A stretch of 55,233 nucleotides of DNA from a virus. Its lineage: Duplodnaviria; Heunggongvirae; Uroviricota; Caudoviricetes. The stretch's first letter is position 1. Each line of letters starts with the position of its first letter. This document shows positions 30,505-50,842 of the stretch, one piece after another. The notes beneath the pieces are model-generated. The model had not been told where the DNA came from. It did no database searches and was given only the letters and a program-made list of their open reading frames with translations. The DNA lies in IMG/VR virus record IMGVR_UViG_2537561945_000003. One strand, given 5' to 3'. A program made the position numbers and the translations under genes.

Positions 30505-30508
30505 TGGA

Positions 30509-31477: not shown

Positions 31478-31693
31478 TTAATCAGTAATGATGACATTTG
31501 CTGCTGCAGGACCTTTAGCACCACTCTCTATAGAGAAGGTAACCTTTTGACCTTCAAATAAGGTTCGATAATTATCATTCTGAATCGCAGAAAAATGCAC
31601 AAACACATCTTTACTACCATCAACAGGAGAAATAAAGCCGAAACCTTTATCAGCGTTAAACCATTTTACTAAACCAGTCATTTTATTTGACAT
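31478..31693 (-). CDS. cspB: cold-shock protein CspB
   Basis: 71 aa [34 protein letters not shown]. Confidence 0.9.
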
Positions 31694-31993
31694 TCTACAT
31701 TCCTTAACTTGAGCCTTTCGGCATAAATGGTTTGCATAACAGAAACGACTTCGTACTTAATTGGAGAGACTCAAAGAAGGAATAAGTGAATAACACCTGA
31801 AATGAGAACTGCTTTAGTAAACTACTTCGTATATCGTCTGTTCTTCAAACCGACGCAATCATTAACGCATAGTTGAACATATGAAGCAATGTTTATTTTA
31901 GACATCCAGCCATCTTCAACCCCATCAAAAAACTATAGCTTTCTTCAGGAACGTGTGTATAGTGCGCCAAGTTATCAGTATTAAGGAATTTTT

Positions 31994-32206
31994 TTGTCCC
32001 GTAAAATGACAGGAATTGTCAAAACCTTTGACGGCAAAAGCGGCAAGGGTCTTATCACCCCATCCGATGGTCGTATCGATGTCCAGCTTCATGTTTCAGC
32101 GCTCAATCTCCGCGATGCAGAAGAAATTACCACCGGATTACGCGTGGAATTTTGCCGGATAAATGGTCTGCGTGGCCCTTCAGCTGCCAATGTTTACCTT
32201 TCATGA
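31994..32206 (+). CDS. cspF: CspF/CspH-type cold-shock-domain protein (lacks canonical aromatic RNP residues)
   Basis: 70 aa [37 protein letters not shown]. Confidence 0.8.
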
Positions 32207-32498
32207 GCTATATTAAAGCTTTAATTTCAGGCCCCATCGGATCACACATGGAGAGTTTTTATGAATAACCCCGTCTGTCTTGATGACTGGTTGATTGGCT
32301 TTAAAAGCTTATGCTGTACTTTGGCCGTAATAGCTCTGCTAATAATATAATAAGCAGACTCATTGTGTTTAGGGACATTGTACTGGAAGAAAACATTTTA
32401 AACATCAGGCAAATAACCAAGTCACCAGCTAAATAATAAGTTAACAGACATGAGTCCCGGGATGAGATTCAACATTACCATTGCCCCATTTAAAGCAC

Positions 32499-32522
32499 AA
32501 AACCCGCTCATCAGCGGGTTTT
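32499..32522. terminator. bidirectional-looking intrinsic terminator (candidate tR-prime downstream of Q; also downstream of cspF)
   Basis: AAAA-CCCGC-TCATCA-GCGGG-TTTT hairpin with T-runs on both strands, about 110 nt downstream of Q. Confidence 0.5.
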
Positions 32523-32627
32523 CTACTTTTTCTTAACGTCGGGTATACAAAGCCCATCGTTGAAAAAATTTTATCCATATTTTTTGAAAAATGCAAACAT
32601 CATGTCGCCATCTTCAGCAAAAATCAT

Positions 32628-33380
32628 TTATCTCGTCACCTTCCTCAATTGCGCTTCCGCGTATGCTTCTTCCTGCCAGCACTTTGTTACCAGTTTACCA
32701 ATGACGTCCGCATACCCCTTATACCACTGATAATCGGTCAGGTCTGGTACCAGCTTCTGGACATGACGTCGTGCCAGCGTGGTCGGTAAACGACTAAACC
32801 GGTTTCCATTACAACGCCCACAAATCTTATATACCGGTACGCCATGAAACCGGGTTCTTTTTTCATCCAGAACAATCCCTTTACCCTTACACCCTCTGCA
32901 CGCTGTGCTGGCTTCGCCCTTACCATGGCAATGCTGACATAGTTCCTTCACCCATTCTTCCTTGATTACAGATTCCCCGCGTCTGTAGTGTTTCACCACT
33001 TCGCGCAATACATTATAAAATCCCGTACCTGAACAATGCTCACAGCGAGCCTTACTTGCCGCAGACCTGGAGTAATCAGCAAAGGCAAAACTCACGAGGT
33101 AAGGAATAATCTGTAACCGGATTTCTTCACTCAATTTGTTCAATGTCGGGTTATCCAGTGCCATCGCGTAATTTAGCAGGCCTTCAATCGCAAACTGAGG
33201 GTCCTGAACACCAACTTTTGCCAGAAATAAGGCCAACCCAAGTGGTGCTTTCGACTGCACCATCCCCTGCGCTGCCATTACATCCGTAATTGTTAAACAA
33301 CCGGTGCCTGTCGCTGGAGCGTCATCGCTCAATTTTGGAGATTTTGGGGAGTAATATTTTGGTAAGGCTTCAAGGTTCAT
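32628..33380 (-). CDS. quuQ: late-gene antiterminator Q (phage 21/82 Q-type, zinc-binding)
   Basis: ORF 32628..33410; start MNLEALPKYY at 33380 gives 250 aa; multiple CxxC motifs. Confidence 0.85.
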   Translation of the reverse strand: MNLEALPKYYSPKSPKLSDDAPATGTGCLTITDVMAAQGMVQSKAPLGLALFLAKVGVQDPQFAIEGLLNYAMALDNPTLNKLSEEIRLQIIPYLVSFAFADYSRSAASKARCEHCSGTGFYNVLREVVKHYRRGESVIKEEWVKELCQHCHGKGEASTACRGCKGKGIVLDEKRTRFHGVPVYKICGRCNGNRFSRLPTTLARRHVQKLVPDLTDYQWYKGYADVIGKLVTKCWQEEAYAEAQLRKVTR

Positions 33381-33393
33381 GCTCGTTCTCCAC

Positions 33394-34482
33394 TTACGCC
33401 AGTACGCCAATTGTCAGCGCGCGATCGATAAAACGAAATATCAGCTCCAGTTGGGAGCCATACTTATCTTCAAATGCCACTGTATCCGTATGCAGCTCGT
33501 TGTGATGCTTTCTGCACAAAGGCAACACAAAGAGATCATGTGCTTTTGTTCCCATTCCGCCCTGCCCGTGACCAATCAGATGATGCGGATCGTCGGCTGG
33601 CATACCGCAGCAAGCACACGGCTGTGTCTTAACCCAACGTGTGTATTTCTCCTTAACCCAGCGGCGACGTTTAGGCAGCTTCATGAAAGATTCCGGAGAC
33701 TCTGGATCAACGGTGATGCTTACCACCGTCTTTTCCTGTGGTGATTTTTGTTGCTGGTGGGCGTAAGGCAACGGTGCAAGATTTTTTGTGCGTTGTTTCA
33801 ATATGCTGGTGGCGGTCTGCTCTCCCGGTACGATGTCGCTTTCGCGGTACACCGAGCAGATTTTTTCCGCTGGTAATCCCAGCGAACGACGCGATACAGC
33901 CTCAGGTAGTGCATCCACCACCTGATTGCAGACCGCCCACCAGGATAATTCAGCCAAAGATAATTCCCGCTCCTGCGTACCGCTTATTGCGTGACGGATG
34001 ACGTCAATCACCCATGCTGTCAGATTTTGTTGAGCAAGCAGCTCCAGTGATTCCGATGTCTGGTCACGCAGTTGGTTGTCGCAGTGCCAGCACAACACCA
34101 TTGCGCCGGTACCATAACGGTGAATGACTGTTTCAGTGTGATGGTAATCGCCATTAGGCCACTGGCAGGATGTAACATGACGTAATAGCCAGTCGGACAA
34201 TGCGCCAACGCCGCCAGCAGCACGAATCACCCGTTCGTTACTAAAAAACGGCAGCAATGTTTTGTCTTCCGCCAGCGGCTGGCGAACGGCAGGAACGACT
34301 CCGGATGGCAGATTACGCATGCTTTTTGGTTCCGGTTCCACCAGCACTCGAGGATTATGAAATATCTGTATGGATTCACGGCCCGGCTTAAGGACCACCA
34401 GCCCAAGCTCAGGCACCAGAACAGGTCTAAGTAATACCCGCACGTTACCTCCAGATCCGTTGCTGGAAAGTGCGGGACGCAC
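33394..34482 (-). CDS. ydfU: DUF968 family protein YdfU (C-terminal HNH-like Cys/His motif)
   Basis: 362-aa ORF; motif CACCGMPADDPHHLIGHGQGG...CRKHHNELH. Confidence 0.75.
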   Translation of the reverse strand: MRPALSSNGSGGNVRVLLRPVLVPELGLVVLKPGRESIQIFHNPRVLVEPEPKSMRNLPSGVVPAVRQPLAEDKTLLPFFSNERVIRAAGGVGALSDWLLRHVTSCQWPNGDYHHTETVIHRYGTGAMVLCWHCDNQLRDQTSESLELLAQQNLTAWVIDVIRHAISGTQERELSLAELSWWAVCNQVVDALPEAVSRRSLGLPAEKICSVYRESDIVPGEQTATSILKQRTKNLAPLPYAHQQQKSPQEKTVVSITVDPESPESFMKLPKRRRWVKEKYTRWVKTQPCACCGMPADDPHHLIGHGQGGMGTKAHDLFVLPLCRKHHNELHTDTVAFEDKYGSQLELIFRFIDRALTIGVLA

Positions 34483-34723
34483 GTGGTGGGCGTTCGGAAT
34501 AAGGCAGCCTGACAGAGATTATCCAGTGCCGATAGTCGAGACTGAGAGCTTTCTTAACCTCGAACCCGCGCCTGCGGTAAGAATGAATCAGCCATTCGGC
34601 CTGTTCTGCAGTGCATGGAGGGTGCTGGAACCATTCAGACTTGAATGCGTGAGAATACCGCCCGTGCGTGCAGGCAAGAACGGGCGAATTATCAGAATTG
34701 TAATATTTTGCGTTGCGTGCCAT
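34445..34723 (-). CDS. hypothetical protein overlapping the ydfU start
   Basis: 92-aa ORF MARNAKYYNSDNSPVLACTHGRY...; may be a real small gene or a displaced N-terminal part of ydfU. Confidence 0.35.
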   Translation of the reverse strand: MARNAKYYNSDNSPVLACTHGRYSHAFKSEWFQHPPCTAEQAEWLIHSYRRRGFEVKKALSLDYRHWIISVRLPYSERPPRASRTFQQRIWR

Positions 34724-34789
34724 CGGTTTTCTCCGGTGGCACGGTGTTACTCAGCGGGAGTTCAGCCCCGCGCAAGATTGTAGATGAGT

Positions 34790-35041
34790 TTATTCTCCTG
34801 AAAAAGCAGAAAAGCCAGCTTTTATTCCGATCTCTTTCAATGCCTGTAATGAAGTGACAAACTCACCTTCGCGCAAGATAAATCCGTCCGTGACCCGAGC
34901 ATCCACAAAATTAATTAACGCAGCCCCATTCTTTCGCAAACACATAATGCGGTAATGACTAACAAGATTTCCATTTTCAACGCACACAGCATAGAGGCCA
35001 TCTTCACAAAAAATTTTACGCAGTTCTTCGATGTTCATCAT
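34790..35041 (-). CDS. rem: Rem-like small protein
   Basis: 83-aa ORF in the Qin rem position between ydfU and hokD; identity inferred from size and context. Confidence 0.55.
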   Translation of the reverse strand: MMNIEELRKIFCEDGLYAVCVENGNLVSHYRIMCLRKNGAALINFVDARVTDGFILREGEFVTSLQALKEIGIKAGFSAFSGE

Positions 35042-35257
35042 CAGAATCCTTCCGGATAATTAGCTCTCCCCTTTAAGGGACCATCCCTCTTATCCCTGCG
35101 CGCTACTTAAGTATTTTTGATTCTATTCCGGCACCGTCCAGAACTTCAAACGCGTTGAAAATAAAAACAAAAACCCGCCGAAGCGGGTTAAGTGCGGGTG
35201 CGTTGAGGATGCCTGCCACATCAGAGGTGGCGAGGGATTTCTCCCCCGCCGGGTCTC

Positions 35258-35413
35258 TTACTCCTCAGGTTCGTAAGCTGTGAAGACAGCGACCTCCGTC
35301 TGGCCGGTTCGGATTCGTACCTCGCAGAGGTCTTTCCTCGTTACCAGTGCCGTCACTATGACGGTTAAACAGATGACGATCAGGGCGATTAACATCGCCT
35401 TTTGCTGCTTCAT
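35258..35413 (-). CDS. hokD: Hok-family type I toxin HokD (RelF)
   Basis: 51-aa ORF found by hand: MKQQKAMLIALIVICLTVIVTALVTRKDLCEVRIRTGQTEVAVFTAYEPEE; terminator-like hairpin CCCGCCGAAGCGGG downstream. Confidence 0.9.
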   Translation of the reverse strand: MKQQKAMLIALIVICLTVIVTALVTRKDLCEVRIRTGQTEVAVFTAYEPEE

Positions 35414-35484
35414 AGCCTGCTTCTCCTGTCAACGCAAAGCAGAAGTGTCACCTTCGGTGCGAAACAGAGATGTCATGCTTTGGT

Positions 35485-35590
35485 TCAGAGAATGCGTTTG
35501 ACCGCCTCGCTATATACTTCCGAGCGTTCTCTTTTCCCAACAGAAATCACGAAAACGACAACTTTCTCGTCTATAACCTGGTATACAAGG
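35485..35590 (-). pseudogene. relE: relE toxin, C-terminal fragment (gene split by IS629)
   Basis: encodes (L)VYQVIDEKVVVFVISVGKRERSEVYSEAVKRIL, the RelE C-terminus, fused in-frame to IS-derived codons. Confidence 0.9.
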
Positions 35591-35632
35591 TGAACCGCCC
35601 CGGGTTTCCTGGAGAGTGTTTTATCTGTGAAC

Positions 35633-36523
35633 TCAGGCTGCCAGATCATTGTTTCCGATGGAAGCATAATAAGCTTTTTCTGCTTCTGCCGGAGGAGTAT
35701 GGCCCAGCCTTCCCAGCAATCGTCGATTGTTATACCAGTCCACCCACGTTAGTGTGGCCAGTTCCACTTCTGCACGGTTTTTCCAGCTCTTACGGTGTAT
35801 TACCTCCGCTTTGTAAAGACCATTGATGCTCTCAGCCATCGCGTTGTCATACGAGTCGCCTGTACTCCCTGTTGATGCCAGTAATCCGGCTTCTTTTAGT
35901 CGCTCCGTATAGGCCAGTGACACATACTGAGAGCCTTTATCGCTGTGATGGATGGTGCCAGACGGACGACGGGCCCACAACGCCTGCTCCAGCGCATCCA
36001 GCACGAATGTCGTTTCCATAGACGATGAGACCCGCCACCCCACGATGTATCCGGCAAACACATCAATGATGAACGCCACATAGACGAAGCCCCGCCATGT
36101 GCTGACGTAAGTAAAATCAGCCACCCACAGCTGGTCAGGTCGTTCTGCCACGAACTGACGGTTTACGCGGTCGCCTGCGGCAACGGCTTTCCGGCTGATG
36201 GTCGTACGGACCTTTTTACCCCGGAGAACACCGGCAAGTCCCATAACCGCCATGAGGCGCGCCACTGTACATCTGGCCACCCTGATTCCTTCCCGTAACA
36301 ACTGACGCCAGACTTTACGCACACCGTACACCTGATGATTTTCATCGTATACGCGCTGTATCTCTCTCTTCAGCCAGTCATCGTGCTGCGCACGGGCACT
36401 GCGTTTATCCGGATGATGTCGCTGTTGCTGACAATGGTAATACGTTGACGGGGCAATATGCAGTTCGCTGCATACCGGTCCGACCCCGTACTGCTCACGC
36501 AGCTTATCCAGCAGTGGCATCAT
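35633..36523 (-). CDS. IS629 transposase OrfB (DDE integrase core)
   Basis: 296-aa ORF with DDE/rve domain, made as OrfAB fusion by -1 frameshift in IS3 family. Confidence 0.9.
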
Positions 36524-36846
36524 TTTTTCCAGAGGCGGTCGAACTCCGCCTTCGCAAAATAAGCGGAAGCCTGGCGAAGGATATCGTTACTGCGGCGCAG
36601 TTCACGATTTTCACGTTCCAGCTCTTTCAGACGCTGACGTTCAGCGCTGGTGAGCCCACCATCACCGCCCCCGGTATCCCGCTCATGCTGGCGAACCCAG
36701 ACACGCAGAGTCTCCGGCGTACAGCCAATCTTTGGGGCAATGGAACAAATTGCCGCCCACTGTGAGTCATATTCATCCTGACTTTCCAGAACCATACGAA
36801 TCGCCCGCTGACGGACTTCGGGGGAAAAACGAGTATTTTTAGTCAT
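36520..36846 (-). CDS. IS629 transposase OrfA (HTH, leucine zipper)
   Basis: 108 aa [41 protein letters not shown]; ends LWKK with A-run at the frameshift window. Confidence 0.9.
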
Positions 36847-36900
36847 CCTGTTTACCTCTTTCTCAGGGAGTTTAGTCTCCAGGATTTCCGGGGCGGTTCA

Positions 36901-37085
36901 AGGCGATAGCCTGAAGACCGGAGCTTAATCTTGTAACAATCAGGCATACCACGGAGCTTGTTTGCTTCAATCCGGGGTGACTCAAGTACTTCAACCAGCT
37001 TCTTTTTCAACTGTTCACGTACCGTCGAGCCCAGCTTTCGCCATTCCTTTAGTGCCCGCTCGTCAAAATCCAGAAAATACGCCAT
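36901..37085 (-). pseudogene. relE: relE toxin, N-terminal fragment (gene split by IS629)
   Basis: MAYFLDFDERALKEWRKLGSTVREQLKKKLVEVLESPRIEANKLRGMPDCYKIKLRSSGYRL, then reads into the IS. Confidence 0.9.
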
Positions 37086-37324
37086 CAGAGTTCATCCAGC
37101 GTCACACGTACTGGCTTAGGATTACGAAGCCGTTCTTTCACTATCTCCACAAGTTCAGCATCTTCATCACTCAGGAGTGTCTGTTTGAACGGCAAGCGTT
37201 CATTGTCAGCGATATACTCGAGCATGAGACGAAGCGCTTCAGAAGGAGTTACACCCATTTTTTCAAGCGCGGCGTAAGAACGCGCTTTAAGTTCATCGTC
37301 AATACGCAGGTTAATGCTACCCAT
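37085..37324 (-). CDS. relB: RelB antitoxin (intact)
   Basis: 79 aa MGSINLRIDDELKARSYAALEKMGVTPSEALRLMLEYIADNERLPF... Confidence 0.9.
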   Translation of the reverse strand: MGSINLRIDDELKARSYAALEKMGVTPSEALRLMLEYIADNERLPFKQTLLSDEDAELVEIVKERLRNPKPVRVTLDEL

Positions 37325-37348
37325 GTCTTACACCTCTTGTAATTACAA

Positions 37349-37654
37349 ATGTCATTACAAGTATCGCACTACAACATGCTTAGGGCAAGTCACGAAGGAA
37401 GTCAGAAAGTAGTCGTAAGAACGGTGATCACTGTCCGCTTTGTGCCAGGAGCAGCCATTGCTAAGTCCATCCTGTATTGTGCAGGTCAGCTCGTTTTTAA
37501 AGAGTCCGGCCATCATCTTACTGGTACAGACACCATATACTTTGTGACGGTCAGGCTACATATGCACAACTCAACTTATTCATCTATTTTTTGCTTTAGC
37601 ATGTCAGTGTTGCTTTCTCGTCGGCGGGTGAGCGGTGACCTGACCTGTCGATAA
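37349..37654 (+). CDS. hypothetical protein, possibly YdfV-like
   Basis: 101-aa ORF at the Qin ydfV position and size; sequence not recognised. Confidence 0.3.
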   Translation: MSLQVSHYNMLRASHEGSQKVVVRTVITVRFVPGAAIAKSILYCAGQLVFKESGHHLTGTDTIYFVTVRLHMHNSTYSSIFCFSMSVLLSRRRVSGDLTCR

Positions 37655-37889
37655 AGGAACGTAACACGTTTTATGCAACACCCGCATGCGGCAGAAAATT
37701 ATTGCCGAACGTTTACCCCTGTCAACAAGCTTTACTTTCTGAGGCGCGCCAGCCCGCGAGGAAAACAATCTGAACATCAAACAATTAATGACACAAGAAA
37801 TACGATTAAAGATTTTTTGTAAGCGTACAGCCTGAACCGTCTGGTCAGAATCTGACGAATTAGACAAAGTGGTGTCCACCAAATAAGTA

Positions 37890-38291
37890 GTGGGAACCAA
37901 AGTATCAGATATGCAGAAAAATGTGACTCCCGGCAGGCGAAAAGGCTGCCCTAATTATCCTCCCGAATTTAAACAGCAGCTCGTTGCTGCCTCCTGTGAA
38001 CCCGGGATATCCATCTCAAAACTTGCTCTTGAAAATGGCATTAACGCCAATCTGTTGTTCAAATGGCGACAACAATGGCGCGAGGGAAAACTGCTATTAC
38101 CTTCTTCAGAGAGCCCCCAGCTACTTCCTGTGACTCTCGATGCAGCTGCCGAACAGCCAGAATCGCTCGCAGAGGACCCGGAAACCCTCAGTATCAGCTG
38201 TGAGGTAACGTTCCGGCACGGGACGCTCCGCTTCAATGGCAATGTCAGCGAAAAGCTCCTGACTCTGCTGATACAGGAACTGAAGCGATGA
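37890..38291 (+). CDS. IS66-family accessory protein OrfA (TnpA)
   Basis: 133-aa ORF, first of the IS66 triplet. Confidence 0.85.
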   Translation: MGTKVSDMQKNVTPGRRKGCPNYPPEFKQQLVAASCEPGISISKLALENGINANLLFKWRQQWREGKLLLPSSESPQLLPVTLDAAAEQPESLAEDPETLSISCEVTFRHGTLRFNGNVSEKLLTLLIQELKR

Positions 38292-38635
38292 TCCCGTTAC
38301 CTTCCGGGACCAAAATTTGGCTGGTTGCCGGTATCACCGATATGAGAAATGGCTTCAACGGCCTGGCTGCGAAAGTACAAACGGCGCTGAAAGACGATCC
38401 CATGTCCGGCCATGTTTTCATTTTCCGGGGCCGCAGCGGCAGTCAGGTTAAACTGCTGTGGTCCACCGGTGACGGACTGTGCCTCCTGACCAAACGGCTG
38501 GAGCGTGGGCGCTTCGCCTGGCCGTCAGCCCGTGATGGCAAAGTGTTCCTTACGCAGGCGCAGCTGGCGATGCTGCTGGAAGGTATCGACTGGCGACAGC
38601 CTAAGCGGCTGCTGCCCTCCCTGACCATGCTGTAA
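38288..38635 (+). CDS. IS66-family accessory protein OrfB (TnpB)
   Basis: 115 aa [26 protein letters not shown]... Confidence 0.9.
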
Positions 38636-38684
38636 ATCTCTTTATCCTGGTTGTCACAGAATAAGCCCGGTAAAATACGGGCTT

Positions 38685-40223
38685 ATGAACGACATCTCTT
38701 CTGACGACATCTTCCTGCTGAAACAGCGCCTGGCCGAACAGGAAGCGCTGATCCACGCCCTGCAGGAAAAGCTGAGCAACCGGGAGCGCGAAATAGACCA
38801 TCTGCAGGCGCAGTTGGATAAACTCCGCCGGATGAACTTCGGCAGTCGTTCCGAAAAAGTCTCCCGCCGTATCGCACAAATGGAAGCCGATCTGAACCGG
38901 CTTCAGAAAGAGAGCGATACGCTGACTGGTAGGGTGTATGACCCGGCAGTACAGCGTCCGTTGCGTCAGACCCGCACCCGTAAGCCGTTCCCTGAATCAC
39001 TACCCCGTGACGAAAAGCGACTGTTGCCTGCGGCGCCGTGCTGCCCGAACTGCGGCGGTTCACTGAGCTATCTGGGCGAGGATACCGCCGAACAGCTGGA
39101 GTTGATGCGTAGCGCCTTCCGGGTTATCCGGACGGTACGGGAAAAACATGCCTGTACTCAGTGCGATGCCATCGTGCAGGCACCTGCACCTTCGCGGCCC
39201 ATCGAGCGGGGTATCGCCGGACCGGGGCTGCTGGCCCGCGTGCTGACCTCGAAGTATGCAGAGCACACCCCGCTGTATCGCCAGTCAGAAATATACGGCC
39301 GGCAAGGTGTGGAGCTGAGGCGTTCACTGCTGTCGGGCTGGGTGGATGCATGCTGCCGGCTGCTGTCTCCGCTGGAAGAGGCGCTTCATGGCTATGTCAT
39401 GACTGACGGCAAACTCCATGCCGATGATACCCCGGTCCAGGTACTGCTGCCGGGTAATAAGAAGACGAAGACCGGGCGGTTGTGGGCGTATGTTCGTGAT
39501 GACCGCAATGCCGGGTCAGCGTTGGCACCTGCAGTGTGGTTCGCTTACAGCCCGGACAGAAAAGGCATCCATCCGCAGACTCATCTTGCCTGCTTCAGCG
39601 GTGTGCTGCAAGCGGATGCGTACGCCGGGTTCAACGAGCTTTATCGCAATGGTGGGATAACGGAAGCTGCCTGCTGGGCTCATGCCCGCCGAAAGATCCA
39701 CGATGTGCACGTCCGCATCCCGTCAGCACTGACGGAAGAAGCCCTGGAGCAGATCGGTCAGTTGTACGCCATAGAGGCGGATATAAGGGGAATGCCGGCA
39801 GAGCAGCGGCTTGCTGAACGTCAGCGAAAAACGAAACCGTTGTTGAAATCCCTGGAAAGCTGGTTGCGTGAAAAGATGAAGACCCTGTCGCGACACTCAG
39901 AGTTGGCGAAGGCGTTCGCGTACGCACTTAACCAGTGGCCGGCACTGACGTACTATGCGAACGATGGCTGGGTGGAAATCGACAACAACATCGCTGAAAA
40001 TGCCCTGCGGGCGGTCAGTCTGGGTCGTAAAAACTTCCTGTTCTTCGGCTCTGACCATGGTGGTGAGCGGGGAGCGCTACTGTACAGCCTGATCGGGACG
40101 TGCAAACTGAATGACGTGGATCCAGAAAGCTACCTTCGCCATGTGCTTGGCGTCATAGCAGACTGGCCGGTCAACCGGGTCAGCGAACTGCTTCCGTGGC
40201 GCATAGCACTGCCAGCTGAATAA
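38685..40223 (+). CDS. IS66-family transposase OrfC
   Basis: 512 aa with CxxC zinc-ribbon and DDE region. Confidence 0.9.
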
Positions 40224-40306
40224 CACATCCCCGTCAATACGGCCCTCGCTGTACGCTTACGATTTTTTTGTGCATGCCGATAGTGCTTTTTTAAAAGGAG
40301 AAATCT

Positions 40307-40639
40307 ATGTCTGTCACAATTCAGGGAAATACCTCAACCGTTATTTCAAACAACTCCGCCCCGGAAGGAACATCAGAAATAGCCAAAATCACAAGACAAA
40401 TTCAGGTGCTGACTGAAAAGCTTGGGAAAATCTCATCGGAAGAGGGGATGACGACACAGCAGAAAAAAGAAATGGCTGCATTGGTACAGAAGCAAATTGA
40501 AAGCCTCTGGGCTCAACTGGAGCAGTTGTTAAGGCAGCAGGCAGAGAAAAAGAATGAAGACGCGACAGTTCAGCCTGATAAAAAAGAAGAGAAAAAAGAC
40601 GATACAAATACCGCTGGCACCATTGATATTTACGTCTAA
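40307..40639 (+). CDS. flxA: FlxA (FliA-regulated protein)
   Basis: 110 aa MSVTIQGNTSTVISNNSAPEGTSEIAKITRQIQVLTEKLG...; sigma-28 -10-like GCCGATAG about 25 nt upstream. Confidence 0.85.
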   Translation: MSVTIQGNTSTVISNNSAPEGTSEIAKITRQIQVLTEKLGKISSEEGMTTQQKKEMAALVQKQIESLWAQLEQLLRQQAEKKNEDATVQPDKKEEKKDDTNTAGTIDIYV

Positions 40640-41075
40640 GTGACAGCCGTATTGTGGCCCTCATCGGGCCACTTTTCGCCATCAGCCTTTTCTTTAAAGA
40701 CATATTATCTTTGTATCATTTCTGATAGTTAACATTACAAGATATAAGTAATGGACGCACTCCCAATTAGTCTATTTAAATCGCCACGAGTTTAACTGAC
40801 AACCCATGATCAATTATGAATTGCAACTATTTCTGTAGTCACTTTTGTGGGGACAGTCCACAAAACTGCCAACTTCCGCTTCTTGCTCTTAGCGGACATT
40901 AGCATAGGCTATTTACCATAACGCCTCATTACGCGCACCGCCCAGACTGACTCAGCGCGTTTCTGGCATATCCCCGGTAAAACAAGTAACAAACCACCCG
41001 AAAATGAACACCAGAAACGCGACTTAAGAATCTACCCTATGAATGGATATGCACTCAACCGAATCGATCTTGGTT

Positions 41076-42368
41076 TCAATCTTTTTTATCGGGATCAGGC
41101 TTCTTTTTAGGTAACTTCGGGGGCTTAACTTGCTGATGACTTTGCGTTCGGCGCGTAAGCCAGGGATGGTCAGCTTTAGGTTTAACATAGTATTTTGAGC
41201 GTAAATCAATACGGGCATTATCCACTCGTTCATGGACACTCTTTTCATCATCCAGTGGTATAGGCTCCGGGCCATCAACATACTTTTCCCAGCCCAGCGC
41301 TTTCCCGTCATACAGAACGTTAATTTCACCGTCAAAGTTCTCGCATACAGTAACAACCGAATGCCTAAGTCGATATCCCCGGCCCTCACTGCGTACCTGA
41401 AACGCACTGCTTTTGTACTGGAAAGTGAGATTTTTAGACAGAACGCGCTTCGCCTGTAGGCTGAAGATATAACCCAGTTCCTCTTCAGAATGGTGCACAT
41501 CAAGATGAGCATTATCAGTAGTACGAGGCGACGTAGCGAACCGGTTGTTATAGGCTTCAATAAAGGTCGGCAACCATGCATTTGCTGTTTCAATATCACT
41601 GATATTCTGAAGCCGCATTTCTTTGACCAGCCTGTCCTGTAGTGTCTGATTGGCGCGCTCTACCCGCCCTTTTGCCTGCGGGCTGTTGGCATGGATTGGC
41701 TCGATGCCCAGTGTCTTTATCGCACGAGTGAACTGGGTCAGCTCACCTTCCCGCTCTGGGTTATTTACCCTGAATATACTGTGTCTATCAGAGTAGAGAG
41801 CGAGCGGTACGCCATGATCATTAAGGTAACCCCGGAGGGTTTCCATGTAAGCCCGGGTTGTTTCAGCAGGCACAAAACGCAACGCCATCAACGCACTGGT
41901 GGCATCATCAATGAAAACGATCAGTGTACATCTGGGGCCTCGATTTTCAAACCAGTCATGAGGTGAGCCATCAATCTGGATCAGTTCACCGTAAGATGGT
42001 CGTCGCATGCGGCGTTGATATATACGGGCAATTTTACGACGGCGTTCACGCCATAACCCCTCTTCTATCATCCACTTTCTGAGAGTTTCAACGGATAAAG
42101 ATAAACCGTGTATCTCGCGCAATTTTTCGCACGCAAACGTAGGTCCAAAATCAGCGTAACGGCCTTTGAGGAGTGAAATTACTGTTGCTCTGAATTCAGT
42201 AGAAAAGGAATTATTAGGACGCTTTCCACGTCGGTGGGAAACCAGACCAGAAGGCCCTTCATTTCTATACCGTTGCACCAGACGTTTAACCTGCCGAATA
42301 GAAATGCCAATGCGTGCCGCAGCTTGTTCCTGAATAATCTGAAGTCGGTGGAGTTCCTTATGACTCAT
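41076..42368 (-). CDS. DDE-type transposase (rve/integrase-core; IS481- or ISNCY-like)
   Basis: ORF 41076..42389, likely start MSHKELHRLQ at 42368; N-terminal HTH then D..D..E core (IQIDGS, FIDDATS, GRVERAN); IS ends not determined. Confidence 0.8.
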   Translation of the reverse strand: MSHKELHRLQIIQEQAAARIGISIRQVKRLVQRYRNEGPSGLVSHRRGKRPNNSFSTEFRATVISLLKGRYADFGPTFACEKLREIHGLSLSVETLRKWMIEEGLWRERRRKIARIYQRRMRRPSYGELIQIDGSPHDWFENRGPRCTLIVFIDDATSALMALRFVPAETTRAYMETLRGYLNDHGVPLALYSDRHSIFRVNNPEREGELTQFTRAIKTLGIEPIHANSPQAKGRVERANQTLQDRLVKEMRLQNISDIETANAWLPTFIEAYNNRFATSPRTTDNAHLDVHHSEEELGYIFSLQAKRVLSKNLTFQYKSSAFQVRSEGRGYRLRHSVVTVCENFDGEINVLYDGKALGWEKYVDGPEPIPLDDEKSVHERVDNARIDLRSKYYVKPKADHPWLTRRTQSHQQVKPPKLPKKKPDPDKKD

Positions 42369-42723
42369 CGTAACAGTCTCTTTGATCATGAAAAATCCCC
42401 CAGAGAATTGTCTGGGGACATTTTAGAATGGTTCAAAGGGGACATTACAGCTTGGTGTTAACAATAGCCTGCTTCTCCGTGCCTTTCGGCACGTAAGAGG
42501 CTAACCTACATGTGTCTAGCATGAAATTGGCCTCAGATTAATGTTAAGCGTCTTGCAGGACGCGTAATGTTAACTGGGGCTTTTCTCTATCTGCCGTTGG
42601 TGTCCATGCCCGAGGCAGATAGCCTCAAGCACCCGCAGTCATTCTACTTAACTAAGATTTCCCCGCAAACCGTTTTTGTCCAGCACAGTAAATATCCAAC
42701 TAAACCAATGGAGTTCGCTGTAT

Positions 42724-42903
42724 TTACCGCCAGTATTCAATGCACATGACCGCCATGAACACCCCTAAAAAAAGGGCATTTATATATCCAAATATTAATA
42801 TCAAAACATCAACTTTTTCCATATACCTTGCTGTGAAGATGATGGGCATACATGATGCGAACAACCAGAACGCAACAAACAAAAACTGCAATGCGTTTTT
42901 CAT
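42724..42903 (-). CDS. hypothetical small membrane protein (59 aa, two predicted TM helices)
   Basis: ATG at 42903 preceded by GGAGGA at ideal spacing; MKNALQFLFVAFWLFASCMPIIFTARYMEKVDVLILIFGYINALFLGVFMAVMCIEYWR; sits in an AT-rich islet. Confidence 0.4.
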   Translation of the reverse strand: MKNALQFLFVAFWLFASCMPIIFTARYMEKVDVLILIFGYINALFLGVFMAVMCIEYWR

Positions 42904-43666
42904 TATTCCTCCTACAATCAATGTGCAATTACATTTAAACACACCTCAATTTGGCCGGACATATAAATATCTAAACCAGAAAAAATCACTTACATAGCGT
43001 TACAAACTCTTTAGTCTAAAGGTTCATCGTAAAACATTCCCCATACTTATCAGTCCGTTCCGCGCCAGGTAGCTCATTGCCTTATCTGGCAACCTGTAAT
43101 CAGGTTTCCGCTTTTTCAGTTGGCTGGTCGTTTAACCGACATAGTTAATCCATTAATCTAGTTGCCGGATGTTGGTGGATTTTCGCGTTTTAGTTGTTCA
43201 TAAAAGTGCACAGCTTTAACCAGTTCTTCTGATGTAACTGGGACTGGTGAGGCAGTGAATAAGGCCTGAATTTGATAGTTCGGCCTGTCGTTACAATCCT
43301 CTTTTTTCGGTACATATTTCCAGTCACCAGACCACTACTTCCCCTGAAAGTCCGTAACGCCTTTTTTCACGTAGCGATATCGCCATGCCACTGGTTTTGC
43401 TTGCCCCGCCGTTTCATGCCCTTCCTGATAATTAATCTCGCTCATTCATCGCCCCACTCATCACAATATGCTTCGACCGGAGTTTTTCCCGCTTCATAGT
43501 CATCACGCTAGGATTCGACATCAGCAGCACTTCCACCGCGTAACTCACCATAGTCCATTAATAGTTCATCCCGCTCTTCAAAACTGTAAGCGTCGTCTCA
43601 GCACCGTCTGGCAGATCCTGAAATTCCTGAGAGAATAGTGGACACCAAATATGGTGGACGCAATCC

Positions 43667-44071
43667 ATGAAATCATTAACCGCAGTGCGTAAAAAAAGCC
43701 CTAATTATCCCGTTGAGTTCAAAATCAAAATGGTTGAACTCTCGCATCGACCAGAGATCTCCGTAGCGCAACTCGCTCGTGAGCATGGGATCAACGATAA
43801 TTTGCTGTTCAAGTGGCGCCAGTACTGGCGCGAAGGAAAACTACGTCCTCCTTCAACAACAGAAAACAACGTGCCTGAGCTGCTCCCGATAACACTTGAT
43901 GCCGAAGATGTTGTCCCTACAACCTCCCCCCGGTCACAACCTGTAGCTGCTGCGACACCTGAATCACTCAATATCAGCTGTGAAGTGACGTTCCGGCACG
44001 GATCACTCCGTCTGAATGGTGCCATCAGCGAAAATATCCTGAACCTGCTGATACGGGAGCTCAAACGTTGA
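43667..44071 (+). CDS. IS66-family OrfA
   Basis: 134-aa ORF. Confidence 0.85.
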   Translation: MKSLTAVRKKSPNYPVEFKIKMVELSHRPEISVAQLAREHGINDNLLFKWRQYWREGKLRPPSTTENNVPELLPITLDAEDVVPTTSPRSQPVAAATPESLNISCEVTFRHGSLRLNGAISENILNLLIRELKR

Positions 44072-44415
44072 TCCCATTACCATCAGGGACAAAGATCTGG
44101 CTGGTCGCTGGCATCACCGATATGAGAAACGGCTTCAACGGCCTGGCGGCAAAGGTGCAGACGACGCTGAAAGACGATCCGATGTCAGGTCACGTTTTTA
44201 TCTTCCGTGGGCGTAATGGCAGTCAGGTAAAGCTCCTCTGGTCTACCGGCGATGGACTGTGTCTGCTGACCAAACGGCTGGAGCGCGGCCGCTTCGCCTG
44301 GCCGTCAGCCCGGGATGGCAAAGTGTTCCTCACACCGGCACAGCTGGCGATGCTGCTGGAAGGTATCGACTGGCGGCAGCCTAAAAGACTGCTTACGTCC
44401 CTGACTATGTTGTAA
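44068..44415 (+). CDS. IS66-family OrfB
   Basis: 115-aa ORF. Confidence 0.9.
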   Translation: MIPLPSGTKIWLVAGITDMRNGFNGLAAKVQTTLKDDPMSGHVFIFRGRNGSQVKLLWSTGDGLCLLTKRLERGRFAWPSARDGKVFLTPAQLAMLLEGIDWRQPKRLLTSLTML

Positions 44416-44463
44416 GCCTCTTTATCCTGGTCGACGCTGAATGAGCCTGGTAATATACCCGGT

Positions 44464-45999
44464 ATGAGCAGCTCACTTCCTGACGATATCAATGCACTGA
44501 AACGTCTCCTTGCCGAACAGGAGGCGCTGAACCGTGCCCTGCAGGAAAAGCTGAACGAGCGTGAACGCGAAATAGACCATCTGCAGGCACAGCTGGATAA
44601 GCTGCGCCGGATGAACTTCGGCAGCCGCTCGGAAAAAGTCTCCCGTCGTATCGCACAGATGGAAGCTGACCTGAAGGCACTTCAGAAAGAAAGTGATACC
44701 CTTACCGGTCGGGTTGACGACCCGGCCGTGCAGCGCCCGCTGCGTCAAACCCGCACCCGCAAACCGTTCCCCGAATCACTCCCCCGCGATGAAAAACGGC
44801 TGCTGCCGGCAGCGTCATGCTGCCCGGAATGTGGAGGCTCGCTGAGCTATCTGGGTGAGGATGCCGCCGAACAGCTGGAGCTGATGCGCAGCGCCTTCCG
44901 GGTTATCCGGACTGTACGTGAAAAGCATGCCTGTACTCAGTGCGATGCCATCGTGCAGGCCCCCGCGCCTTCACGGCCCATCGAGCGGGGTATCGCAGGA
45001 CCGGGGCTGCTGGCCCGCGTGCTGATCTCAAAGTATGCAGAGCACACCCCGCTGTACCGCCAGTCTGAAATGTACGGCCGCCAGGGCGTGGAGCTGAGTC
45101 GTTCACTGCTGTCGGGCTGGGTGGATGCATGCTGCCGGCTACTGTCACCGCTGGAAGAAGCGCTTCAGGACTATGTGCTGACTGACGGTAAGCTCCATGC
45201 TGATGACACGCCTGTCCCGGTGCTGTTGCCAGGCAATAAGAAAACGAAGACCGGGCGGTTATGGACCTACGTTCGTGACGACCGTAACGCCGGGTCAACG
45301 CTGGCGCCGGCGGTGTGGTTCGCTTACAGCCCGGACAGAAAAGGCATCCATCCGCAGACCCATCTTGCGGGGTTCAGTGGTGTACTGCAGGCGGATGCAT
45401 ACGCCGGGTTCAACGAGCTGTACCGGGATGGCCGGATAACGGAAGCCGCCTGTTGGGCTCACGCCCGCCGTAAAATCCACGATGTGCACGTTCGCACCCC
45501 GTCAGCCCTGACGGAGGAAGCGCTGAAACGGATCGGCGAACTGTACGCCATCGAGGCAGAGATAAGGGGAATGACGGCGGAGCAGCGCCTTGCCGAACGT
45601 CAGTTGAAAACGAAACCGCTGCTGAAATCCCTGGAAAGCTGGCTGCGTGAAAAGATGAAAACCCTGTCGCGACACTCAGAACTGGCGAAAGCGTTCGCAT
45701 ACGCCCTGAACCAGTGGCCGGCGCTGACGTACTATGCAGATGATGGCTGGGCTGAGGCGGACAATAACATCGCTGAAAATGCGTTGCGGATGGTCAGTCT
45801 GGGCCGCAAAAACTACCTGTTCTTCGGTTCGGATCATGGAGGAGAGCGGGGAGCGCTGCTGTACAGCCTGATCGGGACGTGCAAACTGAACGGAGTGGAG
45901 CCAGAAAGCTACCTCCGCTATGTCCTTGACGTCATAGCCGACTGGCCGATAAACCGGGTCGGCGAACTGCTCCCCCTGGCGCGTAGCACTGCCGACTGA
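44464..45999 (+). CDS. IS66-family transposase OrfC
   Basis: 511-aa ORF. Confidence 0.9.
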
Positions 46000-46518
46000 A
46001 TAACACATCCCCGTCAATACGGTTCTTGCTGCACGCTTACTCAAAACTGATGTTATATTTAGCTGAACAAAAATCAGCCACTTTGTTCTTCCTCATCGTC
46101 TTTTATTTCGTGGTATGAGTAATTGCAGTAGTTAAAGAAAATTTCTTATGCTCCGTCATGAATTTCCTCAGGTGTTGCGTCATCGTCCACTTCGAATACA
46201 TCCTCAAAATCTCCACCAGCTATTCCCGTTTCAATAATAATTTTGAACTTTCGCATTTCACTACCGCCCTTTCGGGCGGCCTCCTGATGTTCTGAGGGTG
46301 CAGAAATCCATCCGGTTAAGGATTAAATTTTATTTACAGAACTGAATTTAATTATTCAGATATACGTATCTGTAGCCTTACGAATCTACTCACTGGATGC
46401 CTCTTTCATAAAAATAATCCAGTGGGTTTTATCGTTTTTTCCCTGTTCGTTGACAGATAACAGGTTTTCTGTCTGTCAGTGCCAGAATCTGGCTTACCGG
46501 TATTTGCGTTTCATTCCA

Positions 46519-46875
46519 TTAAAAAATCAGAACGCCGTGCGGCCTCAACACCCGAAAGGCTTCTTTAAATCTCTGTCGCGAATCATCACGCCAGGCATCT
46601 TTATTCAGCCGTCCATATTTCTTTCCCATCCAGGCGTTATCACCAACACTCTCAAGATGCGGAGGGTCTAATACAACCATCGAAAAAGATGCGTCTGCAA
46701 ATGATAATGCACGAAAATCTGCGATAATGTCAGGGCTGATAATCAAGCGTCTCCCATTGCGTAATGTGTATCCTTCTTTTCTGATATCGCTGAATATCGC
46801 CCGTTCGTCAGACTTATCGAACCAGAACATGCGGCTGCCACAGCACATATCAAGAATGGTTGCCGGTGCACTCAC
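46519..46875 (-). CDS. small putative SAM-dependent methyltransferase (DPPH motif; possibly truncated)
   Basis: 118 aa; LDMCCGSRMF (motif I-like), VVLDPPH (motif IV-like), LRPHGVLIF; start overlaps stop of the upstream ORF (ATGA). Confidence 0.5.
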   Translation of the reverse strand: MSAPATILDMCCGSRMFWFDKSDERAIFSDIRKEGYTLRNGRRLIISPDIIADFRALSFADASFSMVVLDPPHLESVGDNAWMGKKYGRLNKDAWRDDSRQRFKEAFRVLRPHGVLIF

Positions 46876-47294
46876 TGCGCCACGTCCTGAAAATTACCCT
46901 GATAGAAAGCCAGTATGCGCTGCATAACTTCGCTCTTCCGGCACTCGCGACAGATTATGTTTAGGCGACTGTCGTAGCGACGTATTTCTCCGTCAGGTGA
47001 TGACCAGATAAGGTCCGGATCAACCACAGCAGGTTTCTTCACCTTTGCCCTCGAGAGTTTTTTGCGGGCGTTTTGCCAGTCCTTACGCGCCTGTTCAGAG
47101 GGGAATAACCCGTAGCCGGAGTTGTATACATCGCCACTGGCTACCAGCTCTCTGGCAAGAACGCTCATCAGATATCTAGTCGCACCTGTTTTAGCTTCCA
47201 GTTGCCGTAACGTCTCACGGCCGCTCTGGCGCACGAGTTCCACCACCTGCCATTTAATTTTTTCCCGCTCTTCTTGTGTAAAAACTTTTGCCAC
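46872..47294 (-). CDS. hypothetical phage protein
   Basis: 140-aa ORF translationally coupled to the downstream methyltransferase-like ORF. Confidence 0.45.
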   Translation of the reverse strand: MAKVFTQEEREKIKWQVVELVRQSGRETLRQLEAKTGATRYLMSVLARELVASGDVYNSGYGLFPSEQARKDWQNARKKLSRAKVKKPAVVDPDLIWSSPDGEIRRYDSRLNIICRECRKSEVMQRILAFYQGNFQDVAQ

Positions 47295-47334: not shown

Positions 47335-48681
47335 TTATCCTCTGAAACCAGGCGGAATTTCTGTATCCGGTTCAGAAATATGATTAACACAACGCTGTAC
47401 AGGTGAACGTCCCAGGCGGATGACCAGTTCGTCCCATTTTTCGCGGAGCTTTGACGGGCTCATGATGTTTTTTACCCAGAATGGATCTCGCTGAACCCGA
47501 CCAAACATTTCGCAAATTTGTCTGTGGCTTCTGCCATCCAGCATCCGCATTGTGCGCACGTCATTGGCCCAGGCAGTCCAGTTAGGCTCTTTTGGTCGCA
47601 TGATCTCGCCATCATCACTGGCTGCCTGTTCGTAGAGACCCACGATCCGCCCCCAGATCCACTGCGCACACGCCAAATCCTCCCTGCTACCCCACTGGCG
47701 TTTTTTCGCACTAAACACAACCGCGTCGGAGTTCCGGGTTAAAAAATCCTGTTCAGTCGTCTGCGGGTCCGGTTGCGAAGCTTCCGGACGAAAAGTGTTT
47801 TTATTCTCTGTAGTAATCTCTGTTGTATTCTCTGTAAGATCATCAGGCCATTTTGACCCGATGACATTGGGTCGTTTTGAACCAATGGAGCGTTTCATTT
47901 TGACCTCTTCCATCGTGTCATTTTGACCTGATGGAGCGGCGCATTTTGAACCGATGGATTCGCTCAATTTGCCACCATCTAAAAGCTCGCTCCCATAGTT
48001 GATCGTGTAGAAATTGGTCATATCGCGCTTTGATTTATTGAGCTTTTCACAACGCAAAAGCCCCAGCGTTTTCAGACTTGCAAACGCGCGCTTTAACGTT
48101 GACTCTGACCAGAATGGGAACTGTTCCAGCCATTGTTCCGTTGTGTTATAAATCCAGCGAACACCATCACATTCCATGCCGGAGTTGGTATCTCTCAACC
48201 AGTAGTGCAGTTGTTGCAAAACAATGGCTTCGTTTAAGCCAATTTTCATTGCCAGCTGCGTGTTTATAACCAGTGGACGTTCAGCAAAAAGCAGTCCGGA
48301 CTCCACCACATCGCCATATTCTTTGTTTAACCCGGCGATCATGCACGTGATGCTTTTTCCGTCAGTAATTTCACGATACAACCTGAAATCATTAATCCGG
48401 ATAGCCTCCATAATTGCAGGCACTAGCGCCGTGAACTTTTCACGCTTATCCCTGGTGTCGATAGCCTTCCAGCGTTCAAATATCTTCACTCGATTAACGC
48501 CAAGCGCTCGCTGATCAATCGCGCCACCTTCATATGTGACACGCTGAACATCGATGTTCGGGCGCTCTTTCAAAGCCCAGAATGCTTCAGTGATTAATAT
48601 CGTCGCCTGCTCCTGTGTCATTCCTGGTCGACATATCCAGGCATCCAGAGCCTCACGAGCCTGTTCAGGAGTGATTTTCAT
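47335..48681 (-). CDS. replication initiator (lambda O-like replisome organiser) containing the iteron origin
   Basis: 448-aa ORF directly downstream of the cro-like dicC; array of 5-6 iterons inside the gene encodes a repeated IGSK linker. Confidence 0.7.
   Translation of the reverse strand: MKITPEQAREALDAWICRPGMTQEQATILITEAFWALKERPNIDVQRVTYEGGAIDQRALGVNRVKIFERWKAIDTRDKREKFTALVPAIMEAIRINDFRLYREITDGKSITCMIAGLNKEYGDVVESGLLFAERPLVINTQLAMKIGLNEAIVLQQLHYWLRDTNSGMECDGVRWIYNTTEQWLEQFPFWSESTLKRAFASLKTLGLLRCEKLNKSKRDMTNFYTINYGSELLDGGKLSESIGSKCAAPSGQNDTMEEVKMKRSIGSKRPNVIGSKWPDDLTENTTEITTENKNTFRPEASQPDPQTTEQDFLTRNSDAVVFSAKKRQWGSREDLACAQWIWGRIVGLYEQAASDDGEIMRPKEPNWTAWANDVRTMRMLDGRSHRQICEMFGRVQRDPFWVKNIMSPSKLREKWDELVIRLGRSPVQRCVNHISEPDTEIPPGFRG
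47849..47980. repeat. iteron array (candidate ori): 5-6 direct repeats of about 20 bp, consensus CATTTTGA(A/C)C..ATGG, spaced about 23 bp
   Basis: ccattttgacccgatg / cgttttgaaccaatgg / cattttgacctcttcc / cattttgacctgatgg / cattttgaaccgatgg / caatttgccaccatc. Confidence 0.7.
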
Positions 48682-48895
48682 TGTTCAACCGCCCCGCCCG
48701 CTTCGTCTTACGATATTCATCATAAACTTTGGGATCATACTGAAGCTCCCCGCCAGATGCCTCCTGTAGACGCATCGCGCGACCTTCGGGAACTAAATCC
48801 CCTTTCCAGCTATAAAGCGAAGCCAAACGAATACCTGCTGCTTGTGCAAGTTTTGTTTTTGAACCGAAATACAAAAGAGCGTCAGTTTTAAGCAT
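48665..48895 (-). CDS. dicC: DicC (Cro-like regulator)
   Basis: 76 aa MLKTDALLYFGSKTKLAQAAGIRLASLYSWKGDLVPEG...; divergent from dicA. Confidence 0.9.
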   Translation of the reverse strand: MLKTDALLYFGSKTKLAQAAGIRLASLYSWKGDLVPEGRAMRLQEASGGELQYDPKVYDEYRKTKRAGRLNNENHS

Positions 48896-48909: not shown

Positions 48910-48929
48910 TTGTTAGTCATAACTAACAA
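48910..48929. promoter_or_regulatory. candidate operator palindrome in the dicC-dicA intergenic region
   Basis: TTGTTAGT-CATA-ACTAACAA (perfect 8-bp inverted repeat); related TGTTAG(C/T) motifs recur at about 49421 and 49456. Confidence 0.55.
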
Positions 48930-48978
48930 GATAGATGTTAACAAAAACATAGTCAATACGATTTAGCATTAGCTAACT

Positions 48979-50426: not shown

Positions 50427-50484
50427 TTTCTGGTGACGTTTGGCGGTATCAGTTTTACTCCGTGACTGCTCTGCCGCCCTTTTT
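50427..50484 (+). ncRNA. dicF: DicF small RNA (Hfq-dependent, targets ftsZ mRNA), ending in its intrinsic terminator
   Basis: TTTCTGGTGACGTTTGGCGGTATCAGTTTTACTCCGTGACTGCTCTGCCGCCCTTTTT matches remembered DicF; located between ydfC and dicB. Confidence 0.85.
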
Positions 50485-50653
50485 AAAGTGAATTTTGTGA
50501 TGTGGTGAATGCGGCTGAGCGCACGCGGAACAGTTAAAACCAAAAACAGTGTTATGGGTGGATTCTCTGTATCCGGCGTTAATTGTTAACTAGTTAACGT
50601 CACCTGGAGGCACCAGGCACTGCATCACAAAATTCATTGTTGAGGACGCGATA

Positions 50654-50842
50654 ATGAAAACGTTATTACCAAACGTTAATACGTCTGAAGGTTGTTTTGA
50701 AATTGGTGTCACTATCAGTAACCCAGTATTTACTGAAGATGCCATTAACAAGAGAAAACAAGAACGGGAGCTATTAAATAAAATATGCATTGTTTCAATG
50801 CTGGCTCGTTTACGTCTGATGCCAAAAGGATGTGCACAATGA
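50654..50842 (+). CDS. dicB: DicB cell-division inhibitor (MinC-dependent)
   Basis: 62 aa MKTLLPNVNTSEGCFEIGVTISNPVFTEDAINKRKQERELL... Confidence 0.95.
   Translation: MKTLLPNVNTSEGCFEIGVTISNPVFTEDAINKRKQERELLNKICIVSMLARLRLMPKGCAQ

Follow-up and report, generated by a model that had tools for sequence, protein, structure and literature searches.

A probable lambda-style replication origin within the O-like initiator gene of a Qin-type Escherichia coli prophage

The 55,233-nucleotide viral record IMGVR_UViG_2537561945_000003, referred to here at its full length as the window, is a Qin-type prophage in which an open reading frame (ORF) of 448 amino acids (aa), on the minus strand downstream of dicC, contains an array of short direct repeats. 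The locus raises the question of whether these repeats constitute a replication origin of the kind found in phage lambda and, if so, whether that origin can still function, or whether they serve as operators or simply encode a repetitive peptide. Sequence comparison makes it very likely, in our view, that the array consists of the iterons of a lambda-style replication origin and that this origin is housed in the gene for the O-like initiator of a Qin-type lambdoid E. coli prophage. This reading follows from the statistics of the array, the palindromic character of its units, the AT-rich DNA that flanks it, conservation at the level of DNA, the lambda-O-like C-terminal domain (C-domain) of the encoded protein, and the covariation of its N-terminal domain (N-domain) with the iterons. 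Coordinates of the features are collected in Table 1.

The initial annotation had reported five to six direct repeats with a period of about 23 bp. Six units were indeed present, five good and one degenerate, and Tandem Repeats Finder returned a period-23 array at 47875-47958. A repeat search placed six in-register 23-mers at 47841-63, 47865-87, 47888-910, 47911-33, 47934-56 and 47957-79; their spacing is 24, 23, 23, 23 and 23 in ascending order on the plus strand, or 23/23/23/23/24 in the reverse, coding order. The core CATTTTGAMC was matched five times with zero or one mismatch, on one strand only, between 47849 and 47951, while 11 further matches elsewhere in the window were all isolated singles. 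Autocorrelation at period 23 reached 59 of 92 matches in the array, the top value in the 55-kb window over all periods from 12 to 40. None of 1000 codon shuffles of the ORF or 300 dinucleotide shuffles attained this value (maxima 46 and 44, respectively; z ∼12). A second periodic signal, of period 21 at ∼52645 within the exonuclease gene, was a weak two-copy match and was dropped, and an Rfam scan of the origin found no RNA family there.

The coding-strand consensus of the five good units, CATCGGGTC-AAAAT-GACCCGATG, is a perfect 9-5-9 palindrome with a central A-tract. The three units closest to the AT-rich stretch are the best palindromes, with 7–8 of 9 arm positions paired, and the degenerate copy (47957-79) is the unit most distant from it. 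The AT-rich stretch itself, a putative DNA-unwinding element of 45 bp, adjoins the array directly on its transcription-downstream side. Its guanine-plus-cytosine (GC) content is 0.29–0.30, as compared with 0.48 for the ORF, and it includes the lowest 40-nt GC value in the ORF; the coding strand is A-rich (24 A, 8 T). Within it, three 12-bp units (TATTCTCTGTAG on the plus strand) at 47799-47837 encode TENTTEITTEN, and a single-strand fold prediction left the stretch unpaired. A GATC site lies at the border between the AT-rich stretch and the last iteron in the window, in mEp460_4F5 and in the Klebsiella sequences.

The repeats had also been said to encode a reiterated IGSK linker. IGSK does occur three times, but only three copies share a frame: successive iterons are read in frames 1, 0, 2, 1, 0 and 0, IGSK arises only from the three frame-0 units, and the others translate as GGKLSES, PSGQND and EEVKMK. 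Conservation was assessed by comparing the window gene with those of mEp460_4F5 and two Klebsiella phages. In the N-domain, amino acid identity was 0.75–0.78 and third-position identity just 0.40–0.47. In the iteron stretch, amino acid identity was 0.64–0.66, with a nucleotide identity of 0.82 and a third-position identity of 0.81–0.85; where degenerate residues were conserved there, their codons were identical in 89–96% of cases. Third-codon positions of the AT-rich stretch were 100% identical to mEp460_4F5 and the Klebsiella phages. Given that three reading frames are used across the units and that synonymous sites are conserved, these comparisons indicate that selection on the iteron region acts on the DNA and not on the IGSK peptide; the recurrence of IGSK is a side effect of the reading frame.

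In 80 viral contigs that are nearly identical, the 196 bp of the origin carried zero to two substitutions, the single exception being a locus with five; the search for related loci in viral contigs returned only loci of 98–100% identity, which serve for polymorphism counts and not for diversity. Natural 290-aa variants of the O-like protein (P0016-P0021) lack 31 aa and join SES to IGSKWP; the missing 93 bp correspond to exactly four iteron units. These variants probably arose by recombination between iterons that left two units in place.

The protein encoded around the array resembles a lambda-type initiator in its C-terminal part. PHROG 391, ‘replication initiation O-like’, matched aa 145-448 of the 448-aa protein against profile positions 13-298 of 298 (E 4e-91), and tblastn aligned aa 170-294 of the O-like part with lambda 39157-39495 at 36% identity (E 2e-16), with further matches in phages 434, 21, H-19B and HK225. 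Pfam and NCBIfam searches of the O-like part returned no family except at the DnaT-like tail considered below, and besides that tail a PDB sequence search gave a match to YteR that is due to chance. AlphaFold2 predicted an N-domain of helices and a β-hairpin wing, with a predicted local distance difference test (pLDDT) score of about 66–85, then a disordered segment at aa 107-173, coded by the iterons and the AT-rich stretch (pLDDT 23–28), and a helical domain at aa 181-295 followed by a disordered tail. On this model the iterons and the AT-rich stretch occupy the coding region of a disordered linker, where constraint at the DNA level would be tolerable.

Relatives of the locus link the N-domain to the iterons. 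HannyBb and mEp460_ev081 carry the module at 97–98% identity; lytic and lysogenic growth has been reported for the mEp460 isolate (PMC9836094). In Klebsiella phages MC05 and Kp4884-3, the N-domain is 72–73% identical and is accompanied by the same core, the 23/23/23/23/24 spacing and the AT-rich stretch, while the C-domain differs, being Phg_2220_C. Hafnia phage yong2, with an N-domain 49% identical, keeps the spacing and has the core changed to GGGACAAATTGTCC. Staphylococcus phage StauST398-3 (N-domain 46% identical) has three GGACAAAATGGCCCGAC units 22–23 bp apart (L011:2820-2900), and Bacillus phage BMBtp2 (39% identical) has GTGTCAAAATGAATCAATG units 23 bp apart, followed by ACAGAGAATACCAGAGACT repeats (L012:2808-2962). 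As in the window, the units in the genes for StauST398-3 gp16 (‘DnaD-like helicase loader’) and BMBtp2 gp32, with core GGACAAAATG / GTCAAAATGA and a spacing of 22–23 bp, come right after the N-domain, and an ACAGAGA-rich AT-rich stretch follows them. Unlike the window protein, neither has a DnaT-like tail; StauST398-3 has a DnaB_2/DnaD-like C-domain, with its own helicase loader and a DnaB-type helicase next door, and the BMBtp2 C-domain has no Pfam match. The combination of this N-domain, TCAAAATG-core iterons and ACAGAGA-type repeats is thus common to enterobacterial and Gram-positive phages, and across the proteins that share the N-domain the C-domains have been swapped (lambda-O-like, Phg_2220_C, DnaB_2).

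O-like proteins with other N-domains have other repeats at the equivalent place: 15-bp CGTCAAAATCTGA units in 689R6 and 716R3, 22-bp GGCTCAAGAGCCGAATG palindromes in ST405-OXA48phi1.2, and 21-bp CCGAAAACGGGAA units in HK225. Across the sequences compared, then, the iteron sequence covaries with the type of N-domain, as expected of a determinant of origin specificity that binds iterons, and N-domain and iterons travel together across phages as one module.

Several observations weigh against a lambda-style origin at this locus. Among the six units, 47957-79 and 47888-910 make poor palindromes, with only 4 of 9 arm positions paired. The N-domain had no Pfam or NCBIfam match, and no match to PF04492 even at E ≤10, in a search that gave lambda O a value of 5.7e-36. 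The AlphaFold2 model is of low confidence overall (mean pLDDT 56.6; 13 sequences, a shallow set), although the contrast between domains is clear. Foldseek comparison of the N-domain with the PDB gave as best matches winged-helix DNA-binding domains, including N-domains of plasmid initiators, none of them significant; the top matches, 4pql, 5kbj and 4pt7, had E values of 0.03–0.15 and template modelling (TM) scores, normalized to the target, of 0.41–0.51, the query model being of moderate confidence. Recent mosaic exchange could account for part of the high nucleotide identity that the origin shows among relatives, although the excess of this identity over amino acid identity argues against such exchange as the sole cause. 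Finally, the window initiator is a fusion, in an element with several insertion sequences, and the origin may be a silent relic.

If the repeats are iterons, their operation can be envisaged by analogy with lambda O and SPP1 G38P. Dimers of the predicted winged-helix N-domain would bind the palindromic A-tract iterons and assemble with them into a bent nucleoprotein complex. This complex would melt the adjacent AT-rich stretch, aided by transcription from the dicA/dicC promoter region. A promoter-like site, TTGACT-17-TATCTT, in that intergenic region is equivalent in position to lambda pR; transcripts starting there would cover dicC and ydaT::O and so pass through the origin. The C-domain and the tail would then recruit the host helicase, probably through the host primosome or a helicase-loading partner of DnaT rather than through a phage P protein.

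Whether this would still happen in the window depends on the state of the ORF, which the initial annotation had taken as a whole to be the initiator. It does contain an O-like initiator, but the ORF itself is a ydaT fusion. PHROG 163, ‘CII-like’, matched aa 1-138 of the fusion and Pfam YdaT_toxin aa 59-129. Intact alleles are 1468 bp long, as against 1347 in the window, and consist of overlapping genes for YdaT (173 aa) and the O-like protein (321 aa, WP_000054512.1); this two-gene form is found in most E. coli genomes and in phages PhiR42_1, HannyBb and mEp460_ev081. Alignment of the window with the intact allele of E. coli 88-3493 showed identity over the first 957 nt and over the last 401 nt, with 11 nt common to both segments; these 11 nt correspond to the direct repeat TCAGCAAAAAG (plus strand), present once in the window and twice in intact alleles. 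The alignment indicates that a 121-bp deletion between the 11-bp repeats fused YdaT residues 1 to ∼130 in frame to O residues 3-321.

The deletion allele was traced with a 41-bp junction query, which separates the alleles; a 71-bp query merged the flanking pieces and left them inseparable. Of 5426 complete E. coli genomes, three (F41, K99S and EC24.26) contained the 41-mer; none of the 80 IMG/VR loci did, and the fusion protein is recorded on 56 contigs. In genomes identical to the window, the Prokaryotic Genome Annotation Pipeline (PGAP) treats ydaT as a pseudogene, truncated, and annotates ‘phage replication protein O’ from an internal Met, which yields a product of 304 aa. The YdaT part that is retained may include the DNA-binding POU domain and the tetramerizing helix, to judge from the CP-933P YdaT structure (PMC9986795).

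These data bear on the strongest alternative, namely that the locus is an origin by descent but is dead here, the fused YdaT::O protein being inactive, the prophage decaying and the iterons either idle or at most titrating the O protein of a related superinfecting phage. We give this alternative about an even chance. The 121-bp deletion, the pseudogene call for ydaT with the internal start of O, the rarity of the junction allele among complete genomes, and the presence in the prophage of ISEc22, ISEc8, ISNCY and IS3 copies together with several pseudogenes all point towards it. Against this, the O part has lost only its first two residues, at an N-terminus for which no structure is predicted, phage PhiR42_1 has exactly the same origin DNA, and the fusion allele persists on its 56 contigs. 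To judge from the DNA, the cis-acting origin is intact in the window; autonomous firing from the window prophage is doubtful, the prophage being in decay and its ORF a chimera created by the deletion.

Operators, too, are palindromic. If a regulator of the immunity region (YdaT, DicA or DicC) used the repeats as operators, they would control transcription through O and not replication, and their place beyond dicC and ydaT in the rightward operon would suit such a role. The published YdaT operator, TTGATTN6AATCAA (PMC9986795), is nevertheless unrelated to the iteron and does not occur in or near the array, and the array accompanies the N-domain in Klebsiella MC05, Hafnia yong2, StauST398-3 and BMBtp2, in which DicA, DicC and YdaT are different or absent. 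We therefore consider this explanation highly improbable. Slightly less probable still is that the protein needs a repetitive, flexible IGSK linker and that the DNA periodicity merely follows from duplication of the peptide: IGSK is present three times in a segment predicted to be disordered, but 23 bp is not a multiple of three and the units are read in all three frames as unrelated peptides, the peptide is less conserved than the DNA (synonymous positions 81–100% identical, as against 40–47% in the neighbouring folded domain), the units are palindromes, and the Staphylococcus and Bacillus phages keep the DNA core and its spacing despite different peptides.

On the reading of the repeats as a lambda-style origin, the helicase would have to be recruited without a P protein. 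No P gene adjoins O: in the window, HannyBb, PhiR42_1 and mEp460_ev081, the genes immediately after O are those for DUF977 and a methyltransferase. The O-like protein ends in 21 aa, VQRCVNHISEPDTEIPPGFRG, of which 14 agree with the last 21 residues of E. coli DnaT, its extreme C-terminus (PDB 2ru8, 6aep and 9zbt). The shared DnaT-type ending is ..SEPDTEIPPGFRG, and it terminates in IPPGFRG. Only positions 160-179 of the DnaT profile NF002770 were matched, at 16.2 bits against a cut-off of 201, and the N- and C-domains of E. coli DnaT are absent from the O-like protein, so that the tail alone matches. RAST-type annotation calls the phage protein ‘Primosomal protein I’, and AlphaFold2 predicted the tail segment to be disordered.

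An ending of the form ..[IV]PxGFR[GSNT] also closes the O-like proteins of Klebsiella MC05, Hafnia yong2, 689R6, 716R3, mEp460_4F5, ST405phi1.2, P0048 and P0038, and the proteins that share it include some with different C-domains and some with different N-domains. In about nine contexts with a DnaT-type tail (including L006, L007, L008, L009, L097, L098, L100 and L101), no P, DnaC-like or DnaB-like gene was found nearby. By comparison, lambda, HK225 and P0036 have ..DW..G.. tails, and in all three O is followed by a Phage_lambda_P gene. P0036 is a close relative of the window protein, with the same N-domain and iterons; at its locus the order is O-P-DUF977, and DUF977 is therefore not a substitute for P. 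The DnaT-type motif ended 11 to 13 of the 97 near-full-length 50%-cluster representatives with a lambda-O-like C-domain. The tally of tail types is a small one, and the lineages in it are not independent.

Given the DnaT-like tail and the lack of P, DnaC-like and DnaB-like genes in these phages, recruitment through a partner of DnaT is proposed. Tentatively, and at somewhat less than even chances, P-less O-like initiators may have acquired the DnaT tail (..[IV]PxGFRG-COOH) as a motif that docks to a DnaT partner, either PriA/PriB or DnaB-DnaC, and so loads the helicase, the type of tail switching with the presence of P. In preprimosome structures of 2026 the C-terminal domain of DnaT docks on PriA, and how DnaB/DnaC is recruited is stated to be unknown (PMC13377028). 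Were the proposal correct, the DnaT tail would be a functional handle in replication restart. The correlation between DnaT tail and loss of P is the most promising lead from this locus, and may bear on helicase recruitment by these phages and perhaps on DnaT itself.

Table 1. Coordinates of the putative origin, the genes and domains around it, and the basis of each assignment.
Feature	Position in window	Strand	Basis
C-terminal 21 aa, DnaT-like	47338-47400	-	NCBIfam NF002770; PDB DnaT chains
448-aa ORF, in-frame fusion of cII-like YdaT (N-terminal ∼130 aa) and O-like initiator (last 319 aa)	47335-48681	-	ORF list, PHROG, Pfam
Helical C-domain, homologous to lambda O C-domain	47410-47754	-	tblastn, AlphaFold2
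AT-rich stretch, putative DNA-unwinding element	47796-47840		composition, 12-bp repeats, conservation
Iteron array, six 23-bp units	47841-47979		repeat searches, autocorrelation, relatives
Predicted winged-helix N-domain, putatively iteron-binding	48001-48261	-	AlphaFold2; aa 12-98 of 319-aa part
121-bp deletion junction, remaining copy of 11-bp direct repeat	48281-48291		one copy here, two in intact alleles
dicC (Cro-like), first gene of rightward operon containing the origin	48665-48895	-	Pfam P22_Cro (E 1.7e-11); RefSeq dicC in identical genomes
Promoter-like site, dicA-dicC intergenic	48928-48956	-	consensus scan only

The surrounding prophage carries int, xis, an exonuclease gene, dicB, DicF RNA, dicA, dicC, ydaT::O, DUF977, a methyltransferase gene, relBE, Q, and lysis, head and tail genes. 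The DUF977 protein (46872-47294, minus strand), also named ‘LygF’ and matched by the PHROG ‘Ren-like exclusion protein’, comes directly after O here and after P in the P-bearing relative L014, and thus occupies the position of lambda ren. The methyltransferase (46519-46875, 118 aa) covers just positions 52-165 of a 229-position PHROG profile. DicF small RNA was identified at 50428-50479 on the plus strand (76.7 bits, above the Rfam gathering score); a match to STnc100 at 50477-50686, also on the plus strand, is sub-threshold (33.7 bits against 47) and fits a Qin-type prophage with DicF. Insertion sequences, mapped from L016, lie at ∼27300-46100 and comprise a frameshifted ISEc22 (∼44464-46003), ISEc8, a truncated ISNCY and an IS3 inside relE; pseudogenes are also present in the prophage.

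This analysis locates the probable origin, and the probable initiator, of a prophage module that is very common in E. coli. Most of the module sequence is present in about 1500 of the 5426 complete genomes. RefSeq names the intact protein ‘hypothetical protein’ and marks no origin feature, and in the literature searched we found this origin nowhere described. The arrangement itself is textbook, and in that respect the finding is largely ordinary. Of wider use may be the origin-specificity module, consisting of N-domain, iterons and unwinding stretch, which is common to enterobacterial and Gram-positive phages and offers a simple sequence rule for the annotation of origins.

Known systems resemble the locus to differing degrees. 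In phage SPP1, oriL lies within gene 38, and the layout is like that of the window in that the initiator, G38P, binds direct repeats in its own gene beside an AT-rich unwinding element (PMC6316719). RepA_N-type plasmid initiators (e.g. pSK41 RepA; PDB 4pql, 5kbj and 4pt7) have winged-helix N-domains, as predicted for the window protein. The iterons of RepA_N plasmids are central in repA. No sequence similarity was detected between the window protein and either SPP1 G38P or the RepA_N initiators, the fold matches fall short of significance, and hosts and partner proteins differ.

Closer parallels are found among the lambdoid phages, whose origins lie in the middle of O and consist of iterons and an AT-rich tract, with four iterons in lambda and six in Stx phages (PMC7466680). 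Stx phages 933W and P27, like the window, have six iterons and an AT-rich tract within O; their distal iterons bind weakly (PMC7466680), and in the window the distal unit is degenerate. Unlike the window, Stx phages have lambda-type O N-domains and iterons, as well as a P gene, and the iteron sequences are unrelated.

The initial annotation had the locus mirror lambda O and ori-lambda. As a control, the tool applied to the window was run on lambda, where it found all four annotated iterons of ori-lambda, located at O nt 349-435 and spaced 20/24/23. This mid-gene position compares with nt 320-460 of the O-like gene for the window units, and in both phages the origin lies in a Cro-cII-O operon. 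The lambda iteron, TCCCTC-AAAAC-GAGGGA, and the window consensus are both palindromic with a central A-tract and recur ∼23 bp apart; the AT-rich stretch of lambda has the same polarity as that of the window and is likewise A-rich on the coding strand, with a GC content of 0.24. Lambda has four iterons of about 19 bp, whereas the window has six of 23 bp, and the lambda protein ends in ..DWIYGVDL where the window protein has its DnaT-like tail. The comparison therefore holds for the architecture and for the C-domain, and fails for the N-domain, which is not PF04492, and for P, which is missing: the resemblance to lambda is one of architecture and a shared C-domain, not of full family membership.

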